DNA from: Polyangiales bacterium
GTDB taxonomy: Bacteria > Myxococcota_A > Polyangia > Polyangiales > Ga0077539
DNA: 64,000 nucleotides
Direction of reading: 5' to 3'
Assembly: GCA_046351515.1 (NCBI GenBank)
Contig: JAXLYJ010000005.1
Span: 242,892-306,891, forward strand
Shown here one piece after another: positions 5,392 to 37,258 of this stretch; position 1 is the first letter of the stretch; the number at the start of each line of letters is the position of its first letter. Under the pieces are notes generated by a model. The model saw only the letters and a program-made list of their open reading frames with translations. It was not told where the DNA came from and did not search any database. Both the position numbers and the translations under genes were made by a program.

Positions 5392-5921
5392 GCGATCGCA
5401 CGGCGCCTCGAGCCTCGCGCGCCTGGGCTTCGAGCGAGCGGTCGCAGCGCGCGTTGTTGGGGGGATTCGGTCGCTACCGCGCGGGTGCGACGCAAGCGGC
5501 GAAGCCGAGTACCTTCGGTCCATCGACCATCGATGTCGCGGTCGGCGCCCAGCCGCGCGCGAGGCGGGCTTCGAGCAGCGCTGCGTCGGTGGGCTCGTTG
5601 TTCCAGACGGCGACCGCCGTCAGCCCGCCCAGTCACGTGGCGTCGTAAACGAGCCAGCGCTCGCCGTCGCGAACGACGACGTCATGCGTGTACTCGTCTT
5701 GCACGACGACGCGGACGATGGACGTTCGACCGTTCGAAGCAACGCAGTTCACCAGCAATTCTTCGAGGGTTTTGAGCGAACCATCGGTGAGCGTGTCGGT
5801 GGCTTTCATCGTCCGTCGTGTGTGATAGCGTCCCCGATCTTCGCGCGCCAGCGACCCTTCGCCGCGGCGCGCGCGCGCGATTCACGATTCACGAATTTTC
5901 CGCAGCAGCGCAGCGCAGGTC

Positions 5922-6629
5922 ATGAGCAAGCACGTTCTCCAGTCGGTCCTCGAACGAATCCACTCGCTCCGCGGGCAGCGCCCGGTCGTGCTGTTCGACC
6001 TCGACGGAACGCTCTACGACAATCGCCCGCGCACGCTGCGCATCCTGCACGCGTTCGCCGCGCAGCTGCCCAAGGAGCAAGCCGCTCACGCCCGCACGCT
6101 CCGCGCGCTCAACGCCGGGGACCTTCTCTACCGCTTGGACGAGACGCTCGGGCCGCGCGGAGTGCCCGCGGAGATCATCGCGCAAGCGCAGGCTGCGTGG
6201 CGCGTGCGGTTCTTCACGGACGCGGCGTGCGCGGACGACGTTCCGCTCGCGGGCTCGGTGGCGTTTGCGCGCGAGTGCTGGGACGCGGGCGCGACGCTCG
6301 TGTACCTCACTGGAAGGGACATCCCGGGAATGCTCCTCGGCACGACGCGGACGCTGCGTGACGACGGCTTTCCCATCGGCGTTCCGAGAGTCGAGCTGGT
6401 GATGAAGCCGACCTTCGAAGAGCCCGACGCGGACTTCAAGAATCGCTTGCTCGCGCCGCTCGGTGACCTCGGTCACGTCGTCGCGTCGTTCGACAACGAG
6501 CCGGGAAACTGCAACCTGTTTCGCGCGCAGTGGCCCGACGCGTTCACGGTGTTCTTGGACACGCAGAAGGCGCCGGGCGCGCCCGAGCTCGTCGAGGGTT
6601 GCCACACCATCGCGCACTTCGTTCACTGA
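5922..6629 (+). CDS. HAD-superfamily hydrolase
   Basis: N-terminal VVLFDLDGTLYD motif (HAD motif I) and C-terminal Asp-containing motifs. Confidence 0.6.
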   Translation: MSKHVLQSVLERIHSLRGQRPVVLFDLDGTLYDNRPRTLRILHAFAAQLPKEQAAHARTLRALNAGDLLYRLDETLGPRGVPAEIIAQAQAAWRVRFFTDAACADDVPLAGSVAFARECWDAGATLVYLTGRDIPGMLLGTTRTLRDDGFPIGVPRVELVMKPTFEEPDADFKNRLLAPLGDLGHVVASFDNEPGNCNLFRAQWPDAFTVFLDTQKAPGAPELVEGCHTIAHFVH

Positions 6630-19941: not shown

Positions 19942-20396
19942 GAACTCCGGATCGACTCTCGATCGGGGCGCGCTCGCGAAGAAGCGCGGCGACCTCGAGT
20001 GCGGTGCCAGGAGCGTTGGTTCGTGCTCGTGCGGACCTTTGCTCGCTCAATCCCTCTGCGTCCCGTCGAGAAAGAGATCTCTCGGGGACCGTTCGTGCTG
20101 AGATGCTCCGTCGAAGCTGCGCTCAATCCAAACGCAGCTCAGGAGCCTCGCTCTGACTCATCGCGGGCGGCGCGCGGATGCTCTCCGCTGGCGCGCGAAC
20201 CACTGGCTCGCGCGCTCGCCGCCCACGCTGAGCGTGAAGGCGGATCATCGTTGTTGGTCCTTCGTTGGGAGGGGGTAAAAGATCGGTGCTCGTGCGAAAC
20301 GTGCGCGTTGCGCACACCGCGGCGAGCGGCGACGGACCTGACACTAGCCACCCTCGTCCTTCGCGCAAGGGCGCGAGGTATCGTCGCTGTCACGCA

Positions 20397-21311
20397 ATGT
20401 CCAACGATTCGCCCGAGCCTTCGCGCCCGCCGCGCACGGCGCTGATCCGCCCCGAGAACGTCCGGCGCCTCGGCGTGAAGAAGCAGCTCTTCACGGACCT
20501 GTATCACCACTTGCTGACCATCTCGTGGCCGCGCTTTCTCGTGGTGGTGCTGGCCTCGTACCTCGCGGTCAACGTCTTGTTTGCGGCGCTGTACCTGCTC
20601 GATCGCGACGCGCTCGAGGGCGGCTCGGGCAACCGCGCGCTCGACGCGTTCTTCTTCTCGGTGCAGACGATGGCGACGATCGGCTATGGAAAAATGACGC
20701 CGAAGTCATCGTTCGCCAACGCGCTCGTGACGCTCGAAGCCCTCACCGGGATGCTCTCGATGGCGATGGCGACCGGGCTTCTGTTCGCGAAGTTCTCGCG
20801 GCCCTCGGCGCGCGTGCTCTTCTCGGACACGTGCGTTGTGCAGAAGCGCGACGGCGTCAGCACGCTCGTGTTTCGCATGGTCAACGAGCGAACGACGCAG
20901 ATCGTCGAGGCGCAGGTGAGGGTGGTCTTGCTCACCGACGAGGTGACGCGCGAGGGAGACACGATCCGTCGGCTTCGCGATCTGCAGCTCACGCGATCGA
21001 CGACGCCGGCGTTTTCGCTGAGCTGGATGGTCTTGCACCCGATCACCGAGGACAGCCCGCTCTACAACCTCGACGCGGCGAAGCTCGCCGAGAAGAACGC
21101 GTCGATCTTGGTCTCGTTTATGGGGCTCGACGACTCGTTCAACGCGACGGTGCACGTGAGAAAGTTCTACACGTACGAAGAGCTGAAATTTGGCCGACGG
21201 TTCGTGGATATCCTCACGGACGGACAGGACGCGCGCGTGCTCGACGTGAGCCGAGTGCACCTCACCGAGCCCGAGTCCGAGTCCGTCGATCGCGCGTCGC
21301 CGTATCACTGA
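20397..21311 (+). CDS. Inward-rectifier-type K+ channel (KirBac family)
   Basis: Slide helix, TM1, pore helix with selectivity filter TIGYG, TM2 and a Kir-type cytoplasmic beta-rich C-terminal domain. ATG at 20397. Confidence 0.8.
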   Translation: MSNDSPEPSRPPRTALIRPENVRRLGVKKQLFTDLYHHLLTISWPRFLVVVLASYLAVNVLFAALYLLDRDALEGGSGNRALDAFFFSVQTMATIGYGKMTPKSSFANALVTLEALTGMLSMAMATGLLFAKFSRPSARVLFSDTCVVQKRDGVSTLVFRMVNERTTQIVEAQVRVVLLTDEVTREGDTIRRLRDLQLTRSTTPAFSLSWMVLHPITEDSPLYNLDAAKLAEKNASILVSFMGLDDSFNATVHVRKFYTYEELKFGRRFVDILTDGQDARVLDVSRVHLTEPESESVDRASPYH

Positions 21312-25151: not shown

Positions 25152-26981
25152 ATGCTCACGGATCGCGCGCGCCCCGCGGCGCTGACGGCGAAAAAGTCCT
25201 TCTCGTTCGTTCGACCCTTCGCGTTGATCTCGCTCACGAGCGCGGCCATCGCTGGCTGCGCGCCGATCGCACCGGACGCGAGCGCGCCGATGTCGATGCA
25301 AGTGCGCGTTCCGCAGATCACGCTCGATCGACTCGACGCGCAGTTGCACCTGCGTGTGTTCGAGAAGACCGGCGACCTCGACTGCGATCCCAGCGCCGGC
25401 CGCGTCACCGGCACGATGCCCTACGAGACCATCGCGGGTCGCAACGTCGTCCCCAACGAGCGCTGCGACGCCGCGCGCTGGACACAGCTGCGAATGATGC
25501 TCGGCGAAGCCTCGCCGATCGATACCTGCTTCGATAAGAGCATGCCGATGCAGCCCGTCCGCGTCCCCGGCGGAAAGCGCTACATCGTCCTCATCGAGGG
25601 CTCTGGCAGCGCGCCGGTCCCCGGCGGCGGGACGCGCACGCGCACGCTCGGCTCGGGCTGCGCCGTGGTCAACGCGATGCCTGGGCAAACGGTGAGCGTC
25701 TCGATCCAGATGCAAGAGATCGCCGACGTGGGCGTGTGCGGCGACATGGTCGTCTCGAGCGACGAGGTCTGCGACGAGGGGGCGCCCAGCGCGACGTGCA
25801 ACGCCCGCTGCCGCATCCCCGAGATCACCGCGAGCTCGACCATGGGACCGAAGGGAATCCCGTCGCTCGCGTGGTCGATGTCGAACAACCTGGTGATCGG
25901 CTTCGCGATGGCGGACACGGCGAGCGATCCGCTGCTGCGCGTGTTGAGCCCGCAAGGGACGCTGATCACGAGCCCCGCGATCAACGCGCGCGACAACACC
26001 CTCGACGCGATGGCGCGCAGCGAACAGAGCGTCGTGCGCGTCGCCGCGAGCGCCACCGGCTACGCAGCGGCGTGGCAGACGCTCGAGGTGGTCACCGGCT
26101 ACAACATCAACGGCTTCGGGACGAACAACTTCGACGCTCCGACGCCGCAGCAAATGCTGGTCAACGCCACGACGATGGGCGGAGTGTCCGGCATGATCAA
26201 CCCGTCCGTCGCCATCGGCGGGACGCGCATGTTGTTCGTGTGGGAAGACGCTGATGCGCGCGTGATTCGCACGTCGAACACGATGCTCGCGGCGACGCCC
26301 GCCGCTCCGATGGCAGACGCTCCGCTCGTGGCTGCGGCGATGCCCGGCGGCAGCAACGCATCGACGCCCGTGGTGGCCGCGCTCAACGACGGGACGTTCG
26401 TCGCTGCGTGGGTCGGCGGTGGCGTCGGCTCGAAGGACATCTACGCGGTCAAGCTCAGCGCTGCGGGCGCGGCGATGGGCACGCCGATCACGGTCAACAC
26501 GCAGACGGCCAACGACCAAGATCAGCCCGCGATCGGGACCAACGGCACCGACGTCGTCATCGCGTGGCGCGACGCGAGCCTCGGCGATCCGATGGACATG
26601 AGCGGAACCGCGATTCGCTTCAGGCACTTCAACGGCTCGCTCACGCCGAGCGGAACGGACCACCTCGCGCCCACGACGATCGACGGCGACCAGAGCGCGC
26701 CCACCGTCGCGATGGCTCCGAGCGGGACGTACTTCACCGGCTGGCAGCACGCCGGCGGAACGATCCGCGGCCGTCTCTTTCGCGCGGACGGGACGTTCGT
26801 GGTCAACCGCTTCAGCGCGAGCACCGCGGACTTCGAAGTGAACGCCGCGGCGAACGAAGGCGGCCCTGCGGGCGGCAACCGTCAGGGCCCGTCCGCTGCG
26901 TTTGGCGGCGTCGGACGCTTCGCTGTGGGCTGGCTCGACGGCGCGTCCAATGACATCCGCGTCCGCGTCTTCATCGAGTGA
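25152..26981 (+). CDS. Secreted lipoprotein containing a Myxococcus-type cysteine-rich repeat; beta-propeller-like remainder
   Basis: Lipobox (LISLTSAAIAGC). CGDMVVSSDEVCDEGAPSATCNARCRIP matches the myxobacterial CGDG..E.CDDGN…C repeat. Long Thr/Ala/Gly-rich beta region. Confidence 0.55.
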   Translation: MLTDRARPAALTAKKSFSFVRPFALISLTSAAIAGCAPIAPDASAPMSMQVRVPQITLDRLDAQLHLRVFEKTGDLDCDPSAGRVTGTMPYETIAGRNVVPNERCDAARWTQLRMMLGEASPIDTCFDKSMPMQPVRVPGGKRYIVLIEGSGSAPVPGGGTRTRTLGSGCAVVNAMPGQTVSVSIQMQEIADVGVCGDMVVSSDEVCDEGAPSATCNARCRIPEITASSTMGPKGIPSLAWSMSNNLVIGFAMADTASDPLLRVLSPQGTLITSPAINARDNTLDAMARSEQSVVRVAASATGYAAAWQTLEVVTGYNINGFGTNNFDAPTPQQMLVNATTMGGVSGMINPSVAIGGTRMLFVWEDADARVIRTSNTMLAATPAAPMADAPLVAAAMPGGSNASTPVVAALNDGTFVAAWVGGGVGSKDIYAVKLSAAGAAMGTPITVNTQTANDQDQPAIGTNGTDVVIAWRDASLGDPMDMSGTAIRFRHFNGSLTPSGTDHLAPTTIDGDQSAPTVAMAPSGTYFTGWQHAGGTIRGRLFRADGTFVVNRFSASTADFEVNAAANEGGPAGGNRQGPSAAFGGVGRFAVGWLDGASNDIRVRVFIE

Positions 26982-28969
26982 TGACCGAGCCCGAACGCAA
27001 AGCAGGGACGCTCATCGCGCACCGCTACACGCTCGAGCGACAGCTCGGCGAAGGCGCGTTCGGTGAGGTGTGGACCGCCACGGACTCGAAGGCCTTCGGT
27101 CGCCGCGTGGCCGTGAAGTTCTTGCTGCAACAGCACTTGAACAACGAAGAGGTCGTTCGTCGGTTTCAGCAAGAAGGACAAGCGACCGCAGCGCTCTCGC
27201 ACCCCAACGTCGTCGCGTTGCTCGAGTTCGGAGAGGACGCGCAGCACGTCCCGTATCTGGTCAGCGAGTTCGTCGAGGGCGAGCCGCTGCGAAAGATCCT
27301 CGACCGCAACGTCGAAGAGAAGAAGCTCTTGTCCGTGGACGAGGTGCTCGCGATCTTTCGTCAGGCGTGCGCGGGCGTGCTCGCCGCGCACCAGAAGAAG
27401 ATCGTTCACCGAGACCTCAAGCCCGAGAACATCATGGTTCAGGGGCTCGGGACGCCGGCCGTCGTCGTGAAGGTGCTCGACTTCGGCGTCGCGCGCATCC
27501 TCGGCAAGGACAGCCAGCAATCGCTCGGCAAAACCGAGGTCGGAAAGATCATCGGCTCGCTGCAATACATGTCCCCCGAGCAGGTGCTCGGCGACGTGCG
27601 CAGCATCGATCGACGCACGGACATCTTTGCGATGGGCGCCGTGCTCTTCGAGCTGTTCGCGCAGCGCGCGGCGTTCGACGGCCGCACCTACCAAGAAGTG
27701 ATCGGAAAGATCCTCGACCCCACGCGCCCCAAGCTCGCGACGTATCGCCCCGACGTCGGACCCGCGCTCGACGCGGTGTTCGACAAGGCGTTCGCGATGC
27801 ACCGCGACCAGCGCTACAACGAGATCACCGAGCTGCTCGAGGCCGTCGAGCTCGCGCTCGCCCCGATGGCTCGCCCGCGGCGATCGACGGGCCTCAAGAA
27901 CCCCATCGTTGTGGTCCCGGACTTGAGCGGGCAGTGGGGCGCGTCGCACGACCCTGCCGTCGCGCGGCCGAGCAGGACGAGCTCGCCGGACGCGCCCACG
28001 AAATCAAGTCCGTCGCCCGCCGAGACGACGATGGACGAGGTCGTGCCCGAGAGCGCGAGCCCCGCCCGTCCGTGGTTGATCTTTCTCTCGGTGTTCGTCG
28101 TCGTCGCGGTGGGCGGCTCTCTCGCGGGCACGGCGATCGTCCGCCGGCGCAACGCGCAGGTGGCCAACGCTGACGACGCGGGGGTGGTCGCGGTGGCTGC
28201 TCCTGAGGCGAGCACCCAGCGATTGTCCACGTGGACCGCGCCTCCAGAGGACCCTTCGCAATGGGTGCTCGTCGCCGCGCCTGCGGCGCCCGTGCAGCTC
28301 GGTCGCGAGGGCGGGCCGCCGAGCTCCGATGAGTTCACGTTGGCTGCCGCGGTTCGCTTCGAGGGCCCCTCGTTTCGAATGATGAAGCGCGAGGTCACGT
28401 TCGGCGAGTACGAGCCCTGGAGCGAGGCGAACGGCGAGCATCGATTGCTGATTCCATCGTGGGTTCCGTCGCTCGCAGAGGCGCGCGCGGCGCTTCCGGT
28501 GGTCAACGTCGCGTGGGCGAGCGCGAAGGCGTACTGCGAGGCCATCGGCGGATCGCTTCCGACCGAAGAGCAGTGGGAGTTCGCCGGACGACGCACGTTC
28601 GGCCGCCTCGATCCGTGGAGCGGAACGATGCCCGCCGGAGCGCCCGCCATGGTCGGACGCTCGGGTCGCCTGCAGCCTGCAGGCAGCTTCGCGGGCGATG
28701 CGACGGCCGAGGGAATCCTGGGCCTCGCGACGAACGGCGCCGAATGGACGCTCTCGACCTACCAGCGCGGCAACGGGCTGCGAGAGCCATGGCAGCAGGC
28801 GTATCGCACGGTGCGCGGGCTCTCGCTCTTCGACGAGCTGCCGCGCGGCGAAGCGATGCCCGCGTCGCTCTTGCGTCGCAACGCGGGGTGCGCCACCGGA
28901 GCGTGCACTCCCGCCGAGCGAAGGATGCTCGAAGAAGTGGGCTTTCGCTGCGTCAAACCCGCGACGTGA
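26978..28969 (+). CDS. Ser/Thr protein kinase fused to C-terminal FGE-sulfatase (formylglycine-generating-enzyme-like) domain
   Basis: Kinase subdomains (VAVKFL, HRDLKPENIM, DFG, SPEQ); TM segment (WLIFLSVFVVVAVGG); C-terminal domain with the FGE hallmark …NGAEWTL…GFRCVKP. Confidence 0.8.
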   Translation: MMTEPERKAGTLIAHRYTLERQLGEGAFGEVWTATDSKAFGRRVAVKFLLQQHLNNEEVVRRFQQEGQATAALSHPNVVALLEFGEDAQHVPYLVSEFVEGEPLRKILDRNVEEKKLLSVDEVLAIFRQACAGVLAAHQKKIVHRDLKPENIMVQGLGTPAVVVKVLDFGVARILGKDSQQSLGKTEVGKIIGSLQYMSPEQVLGDVRSIDRRTDIFAMGAVLFELFAQRAAFDGRTYQEVIGKILDPTRPKLATYRPDVGPALDAVFDKAFAMHRDQRYNEITELLEAVELALAPMARPRRSTGLKNPIVVVPDLSGQWGASHDPAVARPSRTSSPDAPTKSSPSPAETTMDEVVPESASPARPWLIFLSVFVVVAVGGSLAGTAIVRRRNAQVANADDAGVVAVAAPEASTQRLSTWTAPPEDPSQWVLVAAPAAPVQLGREGGPPSSDEFTLAAAVRFEGPSFRMMKREVTFGEYEPWSEANGEHRLLIPSWVPSLAEARAALPVVNVAWASAKAYCEAIGGSLPTEEQWEFAGRRTFGRLDPWSGTMPAGAPAMVGRSGRLQPAGSFAGDATAEGILGLATNGAEWTLSTYQRGNGLREPWQQAYRTVRGLSLFDELPRGEAMPASLLRRNAGCATGACTPAERRMLEEVGFRCVKPAT

Positions 28970-28982
28970 GCGCGCGTCGCGC

Positions 28983-30695
28983 TCAGTGAATCGAGTAGCC
29001 GATGGACACGGTGCCTTGCGCGCCGAGGCCCCACGGCGGGCTCGCCGCGACGAGGTTGTTCGTGTGGCCCATGGTCGTCATCGAGGGGACGCTCATGTCG
29101 CGGTTCCACCCGTTGGGGACCTGCGAGACTTCGCTGCGGGCGAGGCTGTCGGCGAGCGTCGGGTTGTTCGGAAGCAAACGAAGCATGAAGAGCCCGTGAA
29201 TATCGATCGCGACGTACAGCCCCGCGACGATGCGGATCGTGGATCGATAGCTGATCTGCGTCGCGAGCGCGCCTGCGCCGAACTCCCACCCGACGCCGAG
29301 GCCGACGCGCCACGCGTGTCGTTCGGTCACGCCTTGTGATCCGACGTCGAGCATCGCGAGGTGCATCGATGGGGTGGTGATGCACCAGCCGTTGTCGGGG
29401 CGCGCGACCCACGCCGTCGTTTGGGTTGGGTCGGGACACGCCGGACCGGCGCCGTTGGTGTTGCTCGCCCACGAGCTTCCAGGCCCCCACGTGTAGATCG
29501 CCGAGAGCGAGAGATCACCGGTCACCAACGTGACGGCGCCGGTCACGATCCCGTTGTTGTACGCGGCAGATCCCGTCGAGTCCGGCAGCGTGTCGACGCG
29601 CGTGCCCGTCGGCGTCGAGACGTTGAACGAGTGGTTCGCCACGTACGCGTTCGGAAAGTAAATGAACTGGTATCCGCCGCCGACCGCGAGCTGCACGCCG
29701 GGGCCCTTTGCCCAGCGAGTGATCCTTCGCTCGTTCTCTTCGCGCGCGAGCTGCTCGCGCCGCAACCGCTCTTCTTCGAGCTGCGCCGCGCGCTCGGCAG
29801 AGATCCTCGCGTCCAGCGCCGGATCGAAGCACCCCCTGTTCGCTTGATAGCGAAAGCCCTCTGGGCACACCACGTCGGCCACGCACCGGTTGCCTTCGGT
29901 GTGCGATCCCTCGGGGCACTGCGCGGCCGCTGCCTGCGCCTGCCTCGCGACGCACTGCCCGGCTTCCGCGCGAAATCCCTCGTTGCACACGCACGATCGG
30001 TGCTCGCCGTCCCAGCGCGAGTTGGCGATGCTCGTGCACACCGAGCGGCACTGTCCGTCGATCCACTGCTCGCCATCCACGCACACGTGATCGGCCACGC
30101 AGTGATCACCGTCGACGTGGTGCATGCTCGGACACACCAACGGCGCGACGCAGCCGCGTCCCTCGACGAAGTTCGTGTTGGGCGGACACGTCGGCGTCGC
30201 GATGCATCCGCCCTCTGGGCGGCGCGTCGTTCCGGCGGGGCAGGTCACGTCTTGCGAGACGCAGCTTCCGTTGGTGAGCACCGTCCCCGTCGGGCACGTC
30301 ACGTCCGAGACGCACCGCGCGCCGTCGAGCCGACTGCCCGCAGGACACGTGATCTGCGAGACGCATTGCCCGTCCCGTCGCTGAGTGCCATCGGGGCACG
30401 CGACGGCGTCGGCGACGCAACGGCTTCCTTCGGGGTGAGATCCCGACGGGCAGACGCGACGGCCGATGCACGCGCGTTGCTGCTCGTTCCACACGGTGCC
30501 GGCGGGGCAGCGCACGGTCGGAGGTGCGACGGCCGCCGGCCCGCAACAGCCGTTGCCGTCGCGAACCTCGCCGACCAGGCACGTGCGTCGACACTCTTGC
30601 GCAGCCGCGTCGACGCTCGTTGTCATCGCCCCCGCGAAGCACAGCGCCGCAACGATGACCGACGAAAAAGCCCTCGAAACATACGTCACGCTCAC
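28983..30695 (-). CDS. Secreted protein with ~9 tandem 18-aa Cys repeats (CP.G…..G.CV….T), a coiled-coil, and a C-terminal beta-rich (outer-membrane-barrel-like) domain
   Basis: Signal peptide. Repeats run CPAGTVWNEQQRACIGRRV / CPSGSHPEGSRCVADAVA / CPDGTQRRDGQCVSQIT / … The C-terminus ends …SIGYSIH. Its start lies 43 bp after the MVP gene stop on the same strand. Confidence 0.55.
   Translation of the reverse strand: MSVTYVSRAFSSVIVAALCFAGAMTTSVDAAAQECRRTCLVGEVRDGNGCCGPAAVAPPTVRCPAGTVWNEQQRACIGRRVCPSGSHPEGSRCVADAVACPDGTQRRDGQCVSQITCPAGSRLDGARCVSDVTCPTGTVLTNGSCVSQDVTCPAGTTRRPEGGCIATPTCPPNTNFVEGRGCVAPLVCPSMHHVDGDHCVADHVCVDGEQWIDGQCRSVCTSIANSRWDGEHRSCVCNEGFRAEAGQCVARQAQAAAAQCPEGSHTEGNRCVADVVCPEGFRYQANRGCFDPALDARISAERAAQLEEERLRREQLAREENERRITRWAKGPGVQLAVGGGYQFIYFPNAYVANHSFNVSTPTGTRVDTLPDSTGSAAYNNGIVTGAVTLVTGDLSLSAIYTWGPGSSWASNTNGAGPACPDPTQTTAWVARPDNGWCITTPSMHLAMLDVGSQGVTERHAWRVGLGVGWEFGAGALATQISYRSTIRIVAGLYVAIDIHGLFMLRLLPNNPTLADSLARSEVSQVPNGWNRDMSVPSMTTMGHTNNLVAASPPWGLGAQGTVSIGYSIH
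30050..30593 (-). repeat. Tandem ~54-bp coding repeats (Cys-repeat array of the 28983-30695 gene)
   Basis: Periodic CPxG…C peptide repeats imply about 9 degenerate 54-bp DNA repeats. Confidence 0.5.
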
Positions 30696-33263: not shown

Positions 33264-33300
33264 GATCTCGCTCCTCCAGTGCGCCTGCAGCGGCGATCGG

Positions 33301-33326
33301 TACTTAGTTGTAGAGTGTTACTAAGT
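33301..33326. promoter_or_regulatory. AT-rich inverted repeat TACTTAGT-N10-ACTAAGTA about 40 bp upstream of the MVP start; candidate operator/promoter element
   Basis: Perfect 8-bp inverted repeat (TACTTAGT / ACTAAGTA) in a ~30% GC island inside a ~70% GC region, in the MVP/OPT divergent intergenic. Confidence 0.4.
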
Positions 33327-33672
33327 CAAGGAGCGCCGCTTTCGTCCCCACGAAACGCGCGACGAACGGCGAGCTCTGATGCTCTCGTGCCGGGCGTTGG
33401 TTGTCGGCGGCGAAGTTTGCCGGCGAGCGGTCGTGGGCCTCGCCGCACGGCCGACGCTCGTGTCGCGCTGCGTCGCGATCGCGACGAGCGATGGCGGCAG
33501 GCGCTGTTCGCAGACGATGCTCGTCGGCCGTTGAACTCGAGCCCGGTTTGATACGCTCGCCGCCCTCATGCACGTAGAGAGCAGCGGGAGCGCGACAGCC
33601 GCTCCGACGAAGGCGCCCGAGGGCGTCGACCCCGAACTCCACTGGTACAAGACCGTCTATCAAGGAGACACG

Positions 33673-35484
33673 ATGCCGCAGTTCACGCTGCGCTCGTTCT
33701 TGATGGGCTCGGTGATCGGCGTGGTGATGGCCGCGTCGAACTTGTACGTGGGCTTGAAGACCGGCTGGGGATTGGGCGTCGCGATCACCGCGTGCATCTT
33801 GTCGTTCGCCGTCGGTCGCATGCTCCAAGCGGTGGGCGTGTTCAGCACGAACCTCTCGCTGCTCGAGAACAACGCGATGGCGTCGACCGCGTCGTCTGCC
33901 GGCTATTCAACGGGCGGAACGATGGTCTCGGCCATGTGCGCATACCTGCTCGTGAAGGGCTCGCACATGCCGTGGCCGCTGCTCATGGCGTGGACGTTCT
34001 TGCTCGCGGTGCTCGGGACGGTGATGGCGATCCCGATGAAGCGGCAGATGATCAACGTCGAGCAGCTGCAGTTTCCGAGCGGAACGGCCGCGGCAGAGAC
34101 GCTCCGCTCGCTCTACTCAGCGGGCGAAGAGTCCGCGAAGAAAGCGCGCTCGCTCTTCGGCGCGATGGGCCTCGGCGCGGTCGTCGCGTGGCTGCGCGAC
34201 GCGCACGCGGCGAGCGCGACCGGCGTGCTCGCGATCCTGACGAAGCTCTCGAAGATCCCCGCGACCTTCGGGATCCCCAAGCTCACGATCGCGGGGCAAC
34301 CCGCGCTGAGCTGGACGATCGGCTTCGAGGGCTCGCTGATCATGGTGGCCGCCGGCGCGATGATGGGCCTTCGAACGACCGCATCGATGCTCGTCGCTGC
34401 GCTCATCAACTACGGAGTGCTCGCGCCGAAGATCCACGCGATGGGCGGAATCACCCGGATTTCGTACCGCGGGATCGTCTCGTGGTCGCTGTGGCCTGGC
34501 GCGGCGTTGATGGTGACCTCGGGCTTGCTCACGTTCGCGTTTCAATGGCGAACGATCCTCCGCGCGTTCAGCGGCTTCGGCGCAAAGAAGCAGAAGGCAG
34601 GCGAGGGCGCGCCGTACCGCGAAGGCCAAGAAGAGACGGTGCAGGATCAGATGGCCGCCATCGAGGTTCCCAACCGCTGGTTCGCGGCGGGGATGCTCTT
34701 CGCGACGGTGGGGCTCGTCATCGTCGGTTGGTTCGGCTTCGGCATCGCGCCGTGGCTCTCGGTGCTCGCAGTGCTGCTCTCGTTTGTCCTCTCGATCGTG
34801 GCGTGCCGCGCGACGGGCGAGACCGACACGACCCCCGTCGGCGCGATGGGCAAGATCACGCAGCTCACCTACGGCGTGCTCGCGCCGGCCAACGTGACGA
34901 CCAACTTGCTGACGGCGAGCATCACCGCGGGAGCTGCTGGAAGCGCTGCAGATTTGCTCACGGATTTGAAGTCGGGCTACCTGCTCGGCGCCAACCCGCG
35001 CAAGCAGTTCCTCGCGCAGTTCTCGGGGACCTTCGTCGGGACGCTCGTGATCGTCCCGCTGTTCTATGTGCTCGTGCCCACGCCCGCGGCGCTCGGCGGC
35101 GATCGGTTTCCCGCGCCCGCCGCGCAGGTGTGGAAGGGCGTCGCCGAGGCGCTCTCCAACGGCGTTCACTCTCTGCATCCGACGGCGCGCTGGGGCATGC
35201 TCATCGGCGGGGTCATCGGCATCATTCTCCCGCTGCTCGAGCTGATGCTGCCCAAGTACAAGAAGTACCTGCCGAGCGCGATGGGCGTGGGCCTCGCCCT
35301 CGTGATCCCCGCGTGGAACTCGGTCAGCATGTTCATCGGCGCGCTGCTCGCGTACCTCTACGCCCGCGTCAACGAGAAGAACGCCGAGACGTACACGATC
35401 CCCGTCGCCTCTGGGATCATCGCCGGCGAGTCGCTGCTCGGCGTCGTCATCGCGCTCATGAGCGTCGCGCATTGGCTCGAGTAA
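33673..35484 (+). CDS. OPT-family oligopeptide transporter
   Basis: About 16 TM helices. OPT-family N-terminus …LRSFLMGSVIGVVMAASNLYVGLKTGW. ATG at 33673 with an AAGGAGA RBS. Confidence 0.8.
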   Translation: MPQFTLRSFLMGSVIGVVMAASNLYVGLKTGWGLGVAITACILSFAVGRMLQAVGVFSTNLSLLENNAMASTASSAGYSTGGTMVSAMCAYLLVKGSHMPWPLLMAWTFLLAVLGTVMAIPMKRQMINVEQLQFPSGTAAAETLRSLYSAGEESAKKARSLFGAMGLGAVVAWLRDAHAASATGVLAILTKLSKIPATFGIPKLTIAGQPALSWTIGFEGSLIMVAAGAMMGLRTTASMLVAALINYGVLAPKIHAMGGITRISYRGIVSWSLWPGAALMVTSGLLTFAFQWRTILRAFSGFGAKKQKAGEGAPYREGQEETVQDQMAAIEVPNRWFAAGMLFATVGLVIVGWFGFGIAPWLSVLAVLLSFVLSIVACRATGETDTTPVGAMGKITQLTYGVLAPANVTTNLLTASITAGAAGSAADLLTDLKSGYLLGANPRKQFLAQFSGTFVGTLVIVPLFYVLVPTPAALGGDRFPAPAAQVWKGVAEALSNGVHSLHPTARWGMLIGGVIGIILPLLELMLPKYKKYLPSAMGVGLALVIPAWNSVSMFIGALLAYLYARVNEKNAETYTIPVASGIIAGESLLGVVIALMSVAHWLE

Positions 35485-35496
35485 GAGTGCCCACGG

Positions 35497-35669
35497 ATCG
35501 CGCATCCCCGAACCACTGATTCCCGCGACGTCATGGTGGATGCTCACCGCATCAACGCATGCCGCGCCAGTGGTTCGGGGAGCTTCATCGCGCATCCCCG
35601 AACCACTGATTCCCGCGACGTCATGGTTGATGCTCACCGCATCAACGCATGCCGCGCCAGTGGTTCGGG
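35497..35669. repeat. Two tandem copies (period 89 bp) of a ~84-bp palindromic element with 13-bp terminal inverted repeats CCCCGAACCACTG…CAGTGGTTCGGGG
   Basis: Copies at 35497-35580 and 35586-35669 differ at one base (g/t). Nested inner palindromes are TGATGC…GCATCA, GACGTC and GCATGC. Confidence 0.75.
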
Positions 35670-35710
35670 GATGCGGTGGGAGCCCGCGCGTTGCTACGCT
35701 CCGCGCCCTC

Positions 35711-37258
35711 ATGCACAGCATCCCCGCGCTCGTCGGAATCCCGCTCGACTCTCTCACCGCTGAAGCGCCCGCGTACGACGCCCTCGTCGTCGTGAGCGCG
35801 AGCCCCGTGGGCGACTATCTCAGCAAGCTCGCGCTGCCCGGCGCCGCGCGCTCGGTGATCGAGTCCGTGCTCGCCGCCGATCGCTCCTTCGCGCGCGCAG
35901 CGCAGGCGCCCGCGGTGTTTCCTGCGCCCGGAGTGCCGGGTGAGCGCCTCGTGCTCGCCACGTGCAACACGCTCCGCGAGGACGTCGACGACGTTCGTGT
36001 GATCGCAGAAACCGTCACCGCGGCGATCCATCGCGCTGTCTCCGCGGGCGCTCGCAAGCCGCTCGTCACCGTCGCGACGCCGGATGAGCCCAAGTTCGCG
36101 CGCGCGCTCGACGTCGCCGCGCTCGCCGCGCTCGCGTCGCAGTGGCACGCGCTCGAGGCGCGCGAGGCCAACAAGGTCGGCCCGTGCGCGGACACCATCG
36201 CGATCGCTGGCCTCGACGCCCAGCGCGCAACGCGGCTGCGCGCGATCGAGCTCGGCCGCGCGCTCGGCAGAGACATCACGGGCACCGAGCCCGAACGCAT
36301 GGCGCCGATGCGCGCCGCGCAGCTGTGCGAGAGCTCTTTCGCGGGCACGGGCGTGCGCGTGAAGGTGCTCACCGACACGAGCGCGTACCCGCTGCTCAGC
36401 GCCGTCGCGCGCGCCTCCAACGTCGTCGAGCGTCACCGTCCGTGCGTGATCGAGCTCGAGTACGTGCCCGAAGGAGGCCGCTTCGAGCGCACGATCTACC
36501 TCGCCGGAAAGGGCCTCACCTACGACACCGGCGGCGCGGATCTGAAGGTCAACGGCGCGATGGCGGGGATGTCCCGTGACAAGGGCGGCGCCGGCGCGGT
36601 CGCCGCGTTCGTGCGCGCGTGCGCCGCGAGCAAGCTCGAGGGCGTGCGCGTCGTCGCGCTGCTCGGCATGGTGCGCAACTCGATCGGCGAAGAGTCGTTC
36701 GTGAGCGACGAGGTGATCACCTCGCACGCGGGCGTTCGCGTTCGCATCGGAAATACCGACGCAGAAGGTCGCCTCGTCCTCGCGGACCTGCTCTCGGATT
36801 TGCGCACGCGCGCCATCGCCGACGGCGGAGAGAGCGTGATCGCATCGATGGCTACACTGACTGGCCATGTCATCCGCGCCTTCGGTCCGTACGTCGGCGC
36901 GATCGAGAACAAAGCGTCTCGCGACAAGGGCGTGATCGCCGCCCTGGTCGAGTGCGGAGAGCGCTGGGGAGAGCCCTTCGAGTGGACGCGTGTCCGTCGC
37001 GAGGACTACGCGTTTTGCGCGGCAAAATCCAACGCAGAAGATTTGGTGTCCAGTAATCGACTCGCGAGCGTCGACACGATGCGAGGCCACCAGGGGCCGT
37101 TCGCGTTTCTCGACGTGGCGAGCGGGATCAAGGGCAGCGGGCTGCCGTACGTGCACCTCGATATCGGTGGAGCTGCGTTCACTCCCCTCGATTGGCAGTT
37201 CGGTCGTCCGACGAGCGCGCCGAGCGTCGCGATGCTCGCGTGGTGCGCCGGCGAGTGA
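35711..37258 (+). CDS. pepA: Leucyl aminopeptidase (M17 family)
   Basis: M17 signature NTDAEGRLVLADLL, metal ligands in …GKGLTYDTGGADLK…, and full collinearity. ATG at 35711. The upstream part of the 35540 ORF lies inside the repeat and is an artefact. Confidence 0.8.
   Translation: MHSIPALVGIPLDSLTAEAPAYDALVVVSASPVGDYLSKLALPGAARSVIESVLAADRSFARAAQAPAVFPAPGVPGERLVLATCNTLREDVDDVRVIAETVTAAIHRAVSAGARKPLVTVATPDEPKFARALDVAALAALASQWHALEAREANKVGPCADTIAIAGLDAQRATRLRAIELGRALGRDITGTEPERMAPMRAAQLCESSFAGTGVRVKVLTDTSAYPLLSAVARASNVVERHRPCVIELEYVPEGGRFERTIYLAGKGLTYDTGGADLKVNGAMAGMSRDKGGAGAVAAFVRACAASKLEGVRVVALLGMVRNSIGEESFVSDEVITSHAGVRVRIGNTDAEGRLVLADLLSDLRTRAIADGGESVIASMATLTGHVIRAFGPYVGAIENKASRDKGVIAALVECGERWGEPFEWTRVRREDYAFCAAKSNAEDLVSSNRLASVDTMRGHQGPFAFLDVASGIKGSGLPYVHLDIGGAAFTPLDWQFGRPTSAPSVAMLAWCAGE

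Follow-up and report, generated by a model that had tools for sequence, protein, structure and literature searches.

An AT-rich palindrome lies upstream of a gene for a major vault protein (MVP) homologue in a Polyangiales bacterium (GenBank assembly GCA_046351515.1, contig JAXLYJ010000005.1, positions 242,892 to 306,891; this 64-kb stretch is called the window, and coordinates below are its own). Our comparative analysis suggests that the palindrome is an operator of NrtR that controls MVP, and we consider this likely. In related genomes, one palindrome precedes pncB, pncA-nrtR, and MVP, which is the signature of a regulon operator. Because the same operator stands before the nicotinamide adenine dinucleotide (NAD) salvage genes and nrtR of these relatives, the vault gene probably responds to the ADP-ribose/NAD state of the cell. 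The type of operator is known; MVP is new as its target.

NrtR, the Nudix-related transcriptional regulator, is a homodimeric repressor of NAD metabolism with a Nudix-like effector domain at its N terminus and, at its C terminus, a winged-helix DNA-binding domain (Rodionov et al. 2008, Nucleic Acids Res 36:2047, PMC2330246). As set out in the available part of that text, its operators are for the most part palindromes of 21 bp built around a TG-N7-CA core (GT-N7-AC is also given), its regulons take in pncA, pncB, nadV, prs, nadE, nadABC, and nrtR itself, and the gene arrangements include '#nrtR-pncA; #pncB' and '#pncB-nrtR-pncA'. ADP-ribose suppresses NrtR DNA binding in vitro (PMC2330246).

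The + strand of the window at 33300-33329 reads gTACTTAGTtgtagagtgtTACTAAGTcaa. A repeat finder returned one perfect pair here (I9); it runs ACTTAGT-TGTAGAGTGTT-ACTAAGT along the + strand, and the MVP strand gives ACTTAGT-AACACTCTACA-ACTAAGT. The first-pass annotation had described an AT-rich inverted repeat at 33290-33340, about 40 bp before the MVP ATG, in a divergent intergenic region of about 400 bp shared with an OPT oligopeptide transporter. We found the repeat in this place, with a GC content of 32-35% in the AT-rich patch against 68.6% for the window, 38 nt from the MVP ATG (33263, minus strand), and with both neighbors as named. The geometry needed correction: the arms are 7 bp rather than 8 bp and the spacer is 11 nt rather than 10 nt, since T33301 opposes C33327 and leaves no eighth pair, and the intergenic region measures 304 bp (33264-33567). 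Both arms are internally symmetric (ACT-N-AGT), so that they are also near-direct repeats with an 18-bp period. Symmetry extends over 21 bp as TTAGT-N11-ACTAA, the length expected of an NrtR box, and over 25 bp with the perfect 7-bp arms.

We then compared the DNA upstream of related MVP genes. A search covering a single genome of each species turned up 79 MVP loci, of which the five closest having upstream sequence are Myxococcota metagenome-assembled genomes (MAGs; loci L001-L004 and L072). Their MVPs are 77-91% identical to that of the window at the amino acid level (∼90% for L001-L003, 77% for L004, and 84% over a fragment for L072). The element was present in all five, as TTGACTTAGCATCACAGTGCAACTAAGTC (L001), TTGACTTAGTAACATACTGCAACTAAGTC (L002), TTGACTTAGTTTCACTATGCAACTAAGTC (L003), TTGACTTAGTATAGTCGTGCAACTAAGTA (L004), and TTGACTTAGTAACAATTTGAAACTAACTA (L072). 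When the window and these loci were aligned, the sole contiguous invariant blocks were TTGACTTAG and AACTAA.T; the flanks of the element could not be aligned, and its distance to the MVP ATG varied from 38 to 130 nt. The upstream sequence of L072 is unlike that of the other loci, and we saw no divergent OPT start there (the locus is unannotated), suggesting that the element travels with MVP rather than with OPT.

The same alignment bears on the idea that the repeat folds into an RNA hairpin within the 5′ leader of MVP and works, for example, as an attenuator, a stem-loop for protein binding, or a stability element. In the predicted fold, the arms do form a stem of 7 bp closed by an 11-nt loop, and an outer, imperfect GC-rich repeat flanks them. 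However, the variants found in orthologues (an arm ending in AGC in L001 and the arm ACTAACT in L072) break this pairing without compensation, the folding energy of the leader was no better than that of shuffled sequences (z = -0.15), and Rfam gave no match. The outer repeat (33289-33298/33331-33340, I4), which we rejected as a candidate element, had no counterpart when the orthologous upstream sequences were read by eye. The element also sits at the expected position of a promoter and bears a -35 box. The broken pairs, the fold score, and the lack of an Rfam match argue for a DNA signal, and we give the hairpin a very slim chance.

To return to the NrtR operator, we collected pncB, pncA, and nrtR from the MVP-site MAGs by protein homology, not by motif. 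The NAD-gene form of the element, TTG-ACTTAGTTGCA-N3-TGCAACTAAGT, lies before pncB in three related genome bins and before pncA-nrtR in two of them. In MAG JAAFIF01, the MVP site is gTTGACTTAGTTTCACTATGCAACTAAGTc (L003), the pncB site is gTTGACTTAGTTGCTTTGTGCAACTAAGTa (L122), and the pncA-nrtR site is cTTGACTTAGTTGCTGTGTGCAACTAACTt (L128). MAG LNEO01 has an MVP site (L001) and the pncA-nrtR site gTTGACTTAGTTGCTATCTGCAACTAAGAt (L131); the pncB site counted with it is on L119, a contig of metagenome assembly LNFM01, which also has an MVP contig whose site is identical to that of L001. MAG JAUXYJ01 has an MVP site (L004) and the pncB site aTTGACTTAGTTGCATATCGCAACTAAGTAt (L134). The motif therefore stands at NAD-metabolism genes and at MVP of the same genome in three MAGs, with the nrtR operon included in JAAFIF01 and LNEO01. 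Further orthologues (L123/L124, L125, L130, and L132) carry the same element, and it is absent from more remote pncA genes without nrtR beside them.

In each arm of these related NAD-gene sites, the palindrome covers 10-11 bp, and their TTAGT-TG-N7-CA-ACTAA agrees with the NrtR box as published (palindromic over 21 bp, core TG-N7-CA). The gene 3′ of pncA encodes NUDIX and NrtR winged-helix (WHD_NrtR) domains (L128 and L131), and NrtR of this clade matches solved structures of the family (2fml, 4.9e-37; Shewanella NrtR 3gz5/3gz6, 7.3e-29). By eye, the Nudix box of JAAFIF01 NrtR (L128:3661-4413), GFVLPRETVEQAAARELEEETGL, fits the full G-x5-E-x7-REUxEExGU pattern; this NrtR may still hydrolyze ADP-ribose besides sensing it.

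A weight matrix built from the seven NAD-gene sites alone was used to score the whole window on both strands. Its best score, 37.5 bits, fell at 33302-33329(-), on the MVP site. The mirror reading of this site scored 22.6 bits and the next unrelated site 4.0 bits, on a background with a mean of -47.5 and an sd of 10.6.

Outside the Myxococcota, we observed an exact copy of the element upstream of MVP in Saprospira grandis DSM 2844 (Bacteroidota; MVP 53% identical), ACTTAGTTTAGATATTAAACTAAGT. The site, ACTTAGTTTA-N5-TAAACTAAGT, has the same arms and spacing, is palindromic over 10 bp per arm, and lies 28 nt before the MVP ATG, directly after the terminator-like hairpin and T-run of the upstream gene. 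By a rough hand estimate from base composition (∼130 nt × ∼60 loci), a 14-base exact match of this kind has a chance expectation of <1e-3. The best 120 proteins of a profile search for NrtR homologues included none from Saprospira; the link between the Saprospira site and NrtR is thus its sequence identity to NAD-gene sites elsewhere and nothing more.

As a bare 7-bp inverted repeat, the element is ordinary in the window, which holds 145 perfect pairs with spacers of 8-14 nt versus 46-81 in shuffled sequences. This abundance is what speaks for a chance repeat without function. As a particular AT-rich sequence, however, the element exceeds chance: ACTWAGT occurs twice in 64 kb, both times at this site, versus 0.39 expected; the whole pattern, allowing up to 3 mismatches, is found once versus 0.18 expected; and no other 7-bp inverted repeat in the window is AT-rich, with none found in shuffles. 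Together with its conservation in six orthologous loci among diverged flanks, the score from an independent matrix, and the exact copy before MVP in another phylum, the comparative data already refute a chance origin, to which we attach practically no probability.

A symmetrised 25-nt matrix run on 400 nt upstream of 66 MVP genes picked out L003, L002, L001, L072, and L004 (42 to 20 bits) and Saprospira (15 bits), and no others; all remaining loci scored ≤7.6. Judged by these scores, the element before MVP is limited to one Myxococcota clade plus Saprospira. MVP loci of Nannocystaceae, Cytophagales, Rifleibacteria-like, and other bacteria have different upstream signals, so MVP regulation appears to vary among lineages. 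Nannocystaceae MVP genes (L012-L015, L017, L019-L021, L023, L055, and L074) have a conserved -10-like TATGCT/TATACT ∼45 nt before the ATG. Rifleibacteria-like loci (L016, L018, L025-L027, L063, and L067) have a near-consensus promoter, TTGATTGTATAAAA...TCTATAAT (TTGATT-N17-TATAAT). The Bacteroidia MAG at L038 has ACTTAGT-N10-ACTTAGT within a small membrane-protein open reading frame ∼480 nt 5′ of MVP (5505-5528) and TTAGT-N10-ACTAA 45 nt before the MVP ATG (5920-5940); with the wrong spacing and a low matrix score, these copies are probably chance in AT-rich DNA.

On the MVP strand, the AT-rich patch reads cTTGACTTAGTAACACTCTACAACTAAGTAcc, in which TTGACT is followed by a 17-bp spacer, TAAGTA, and then GGAGGAG. 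The TTG never varies among the Myxococcota sites (MVP, pncB, and pncA-nrtR), lacks a mirrored counterpart outside the opposite arm, and is missing from Saprospira, which marks it as a feature of the promoter and not as part of the operator. The Saprospira site fits this division, with TTG as a Myxococcota -35 feature and the palindrome as the conserved recognition element.

We considered whether the whole element could be a core promoter (-35 TTGACT, 17 bp, -10 TAAGTN) for a housekeeping or alternative sigma factor, with the dyad incidental. TTGACT matches the -35 consensus at five of six positions and is correctly spaced from a hexamer that starts with TA, the TTG is conserved asymmetrically, and many metagenome matches (see below) lie 10-60 nt before the start codons of unrelated genes. 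Against this, ACTTAGTTGCA and TGCAACTAAGT are conserved symmetrically at positions outside any sigma-70 hexamer, and the genes carrying the element are a specific regulon rather than a housekeeping set. Other MVP orthologues are preceded by ordinary promoters of another sequence, with TATGCT in the Nannocystaceae and TTGATT-N17-TATAAT in the Rifleibacteria-like loci. The Saprospira palindrome, which lacks TTG, argues in the same direction; the promoter consensus differs in Bacteroidota. We regard a core promoter alone as quite improbable.

We reasoned instead that an NrtR operator is laid across the MVP core promoter, its distal arm fused to TTGACT and its proximal arm over TAAGTA, 17 bp apart. 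Since it spans the -35 to -10 region, NrtR binding should block RNA polymerase: a bound dimer would exclude the enzyme and keep MVP off. As ADP-ribose, a cleavage product of NAD+, builds up, NrtR would leave the DNA, and transcription of MVP would then proceed together with that of nrtR and of pncA and pncB, the genes of NAD salvage. In this scheme, we infer the binding factor, the repression, the transcription start, and, from PMC2330246, ADP-ribose as the inducer. The first-pass annotation had proposed a dimeric-repressor operator and/or a promoter element. The comparative evidence backs both halves, the promoter half through the overlap of the palindrome with the conserved -35-like and -10-like hexamers and the operator half with NrtR now named as the candidate regulator. 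Its further suggestion, that the vault module is specifically regulated, survives in part: regulation is supported, but the site looks like the operator of a known NAD-metabolism regulon into which MVP has been taken, which is not specificity to the vault module.

Next, metagenomes were scanned for TTGACTTAG-N11-AACTAAGT, a pattern of 17 fixed bases, matched exactly, that by itself fixes a good -35 hexamer. Forty-two contigs matched, one of them an MVP locus. Many matches lie in DNA of 58-75% GC, in which chance alone would not be expected to yield an AT-rich 17-mer, and many form longer palindromes, such as ACTTAGTTGCA-tcg-TGCAACTAAGT in L119. The neighbors include nrtR (NUDIX and NrtR winged helix; L100), a nicotinamidase-type pncA followed by nrtR (L104), pncB and a nadD-like gene followed by nrtR (L108), pncB (L119), and the quinolinate synthase gene nadA (L083/L091), on contigs ranging from 29% to 72% GC. 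Five independent NAD/nrtR loci among ∼25 bacterial matches is a strong enrichment, because NAD genes and nrtR make up a fraction of a percent of a genome. A genome-wide search for further copies had been the check suggested with the first-pass annotation, and the copies we found mark promoters of a coherent gene set (pncB, pncA-nrtR, and MVP) rather than random sites. Unrelated neighbors were also seen (MarR/dehydrogenase, Phd-VapC, GH12, HxlR, fumarase, and adenosine and cytidine deaminases), and these matches are best read as sites of other factors or as chance resemblances to promoters.

The scan also bears on the identity of the factor. MVP, pncB, and pncA-nrtR could share an operator bound by some other regulator, with nrtR merely one of the co-regulated genes: NrtR is named through guilt by association and site architecture, and similar palindromes adjoin MarR and HxlR regulator genes in the metagenomes (L088 and L101). 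Yet nrtR is the sole regulator gene that recurs beside the motif, on contigs of 29%, 66%, 68-69%, and 72% GC, and near MVP no further regulator gene is conserved. The site has symmetry of the NrtR type over 21 bp, with a TG-N7-CA core that is complete in the NAD-gene sites, and autoregulated pncA-nrtR and nrtR operons are the pattern given for NrtR in the available text of PMC2330246. We consider another shared regulator unlikely.

Among other matches, a gene for an SPFH/Band-7 protein (345 aa, Band_7 5.2e-16) is divergent from nrtR in L100 (Ga0233416_10016007), with the palindrome between them (1458-1485, in motif orientation). The MVP shoulder domain is SPFH-like; BLASTP gave no significant similarity between the L100 protein and MVP. 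Similar sites, of the form TTGACTTAGT-N..-AAAACTAAGTT, precede orthologous genes for secreted GH12 glycoside hydrolases in two different high-GC organisms (L081, L085, L090, and L095; 68-75% GC). L110 and L120 contain two unrelated Phd/YefM-PIN toxin-antitoxin operons, and the palindromes before them have the same outer arms, e.g., ACTTAGTCCATACTATGAACTAAGT, with 11 of 12 positions paired.

Several observations weigh against NrtR control of MVP. The 64-kb window contains neither nrtR nor NAD genes, and the regulon is seen in relatives whose MVPs are 77-91% identical. The NAD-gene sites have a full core (ACTTAGT-TG-N7-CA-ACTAAGT), whereas the MVP site of the window reads AA-N7-CA, its distal TG replaced by AA, and keeps only the promoter-proximal half-core of a full NrtR box. 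It also scores ∼15 bits below the NAD-gene sites (51-55 bits). Because of this replacement and the lower score, we infer weaker NrtR binding at this site, and with it weaker repression and easier derepression. On the promoter side, TAAGTA is weak, matching TATAAT at two of six positions, and is assigned as a -10 from its position alone; a consensus promoter scan called no promoter at the site upstream of MVP. The link is restricted by lineage, with about 60 of the 66 bacterial MVP loci lacking such a site. Finally, the motif also stands before unrelated genes in the metagenomes, so the pattern by itself is no proof of NrtR control.

We compared the element with known systems. It resembles the NrtR boxes described in PMC2330246 in being a palindrome of about 21 bp at promoters of pncA, pncB, nadA, and nrtR, with a TG-N7-CA core that is complete in the NAD-gene sites and half kept at the MVP site of the window. 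It differs in that its outer arms, ACTTAGT/ACTAAGT, stretch the symmetry to 25 bp, in its Myxococcota hosts, which are not among the groups covered in the available text of that paper, and in its target, as MVP is absent from the regulon table and from that text. The boxes of NadR (TGTTTA-N6-TAAACA), NadQ (ttATRCTCannntGAGYATaa), and mycobacterial NrtR (GTTTTCGA-N7-TCGAAAAC) are also palindromic and also control NAD biosynthesis or salvage, but their half-sites and spacings differ, and none matches ACTTAGT-N11-ACTAAGT.

Promoters of the MerR family (merT, zntA, and copA) have a dyad between a TTGACT -35 and the -10, with a 19-20 bp spacer. The MVP site is similar in that its TTGACT is fused to the start of a dyad spanning the spacer. 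Unlike MerR promoters, however, its spacer is 17 bp and its dyad continues across the -10 instead of stopping short of it; with both hexamers overlapped and no MerR gene nearby, we rejected a MerR-type operator-promoter. The HspR-associated inverted repeat (HAIR) has the consensus CTTGAGT-N7-ACTCAAG. In the window, CTTGACT-N7-ACTCTAC is only a partial match, and its second half is not conserved in L001-L004. The HrcA element CIRCE (controlling inverted repeat of chaperone expression) does not fit in length or arms. For LysR-type regulators (T-N11-A) and extracytoplasmic function sigma factors, either orthologues do not conserve the positions that matter or the spacing is wrong. A full-text literature search for the half-site strings returned nothing relevant.

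The function of vaults has been open for decades, and an ADP-ribose-responsive regulator would give MVP a named regulator and a concrete inducing signal. The vault enzyme vPARP consumes NAD. The eukaryotic vault has a physical tie to NAD, an ADP-ribosyltransferase in the particle, whereas the tie of bacterial MVP would be transcriptional. This parallel is suggestive and may be a coincidence; we saw no gene for a poly(ADP-ribose) polymerase (PARP)-like protein adjoining MVP. vPARP (PARP4) is a component of the eukaryotic vault, and sequence surveys are the only source on bacterial MVP homologues (bioRxiv 10.1101/872010). A bolder proposal, which we hold with more doubt than belief, is that bacterial MVP is a true member of an ADP-ribose/NAD+ stress response switched by NrtR, so that a vault-NAD tie would run from bacteria to animals. 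If so, MVP would be switched on during NAD+ cleavage, for example by NADase-type defense or toxin systems, or in starvation, and its recruitment in two phyla (the Myxococcota clade and Saprospira) would echo the vPARP link of eukaryotic vaults. If the link is a local regulatory accident of one clade, the finding is an ordinary operator. NrtR control of MVP would widen the NrtR regulon beyond NAD and pentose metabolism, and the Myxococcota NrtR box TTG-ACTTAGTTGCA-N3-TGCAACTAAGT can be used for genome scans. Experiments should be feasible in Saprospira grandis DSM 2844, a named culture-collection strain with an exact site.

Table 1. Features of the MVP upstream region and adjoining genes, in window coordinates
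Feature	Position	Strand	Basis and remarks
25-bp operator palindrome, predicted NrtR binding site	33302..33326	.	Repeat finder (I9), conservation upstream of MVP, top match of the NAD-gene matrix
Arm ACTTAGT	33302..33308	.	Promoter-proximal on the MVP strand, where it reads ACTAAGT after CA; invariant AACTAA.T block of the upstream alignment
Arm ACTAAGT	33320..33326	.	Distal on the MVP strand, where it reads ACTTAGT, fused to the -35-like hexamer; invariant TTGACTTAG block
-35-like hexamer TTGACT	33324..33329	-	Read from sequence; 5/6 to TTGACA; overlaps the distal arm
-10-like hexamer TAAGTA	33301..33306	-	Position only; 17 nt 3′ of TTGACT; overlaps the proximal arm
Shine-Dalgarno-like GGAGGAG	33271..33277	-	Read from sequence; 7 nt before the MVP ATG
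Major vault protein homologue, 841 aa	30738..33263	-	Pfam MVP_shoulder 1.7e-26, Vault_3 1.4e-06; 79 related loci
OPT oligopeptide transporter	33568-35484	+	Pfam OPT 1.8e-92; followed by an M17 aminopeptidase
570-aa Cys-rich protein, likely signal peptide	28983..30695	-	Starts 42 nt after the MVP stop

The Cys-rich protein encoded after MVP (Table 1) has repeated C-P-x-G motifs and no Pfam match. The order of MVP and the Cys-rich gene is kept in L003 (Cys-rich gene at L003:8558-10258), and the two genes are possibly co-transcribed. Nothing indicates that the operator controls the divergent OPT gene. The same intergenic region holds, closer to OPT, a perfect 16-bp GC-rich palindrome, CGTCGCGATCGCGACG, at 33471-33486 (I3). 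Genes for peptide handling lie beside MVP, namely OPT and the M17 aminopeptidase (33568-37258 (+) in the window; also in L001-L004), and in Saprospira a prolyl oligopeptidase gene (S9) is convergent to MVP (L048:8764-10692 (-)). From these neighbors in both phyla, MVP may be functionally associated with peptide turnover.

A Pfam scan of the neighbors from 20 to 46 kb found no gene for a DNA-binding regulator; it gave a K+ channel, GNAT, Ser/Thr kinases, DUF6909, a PEGA/TPR protein, and DUF2752. The channel, a 348-aa protein at 20265-21311 (+), has the domains of eukaryote-type inward-rectifier K+ channels (IRK_C 2.4e-25, Ion_trans_2, and IRK). Several Ser/Thr kinases are encoded near it, and one (26978-28969) carries a fused FGE-sulfatase domain.

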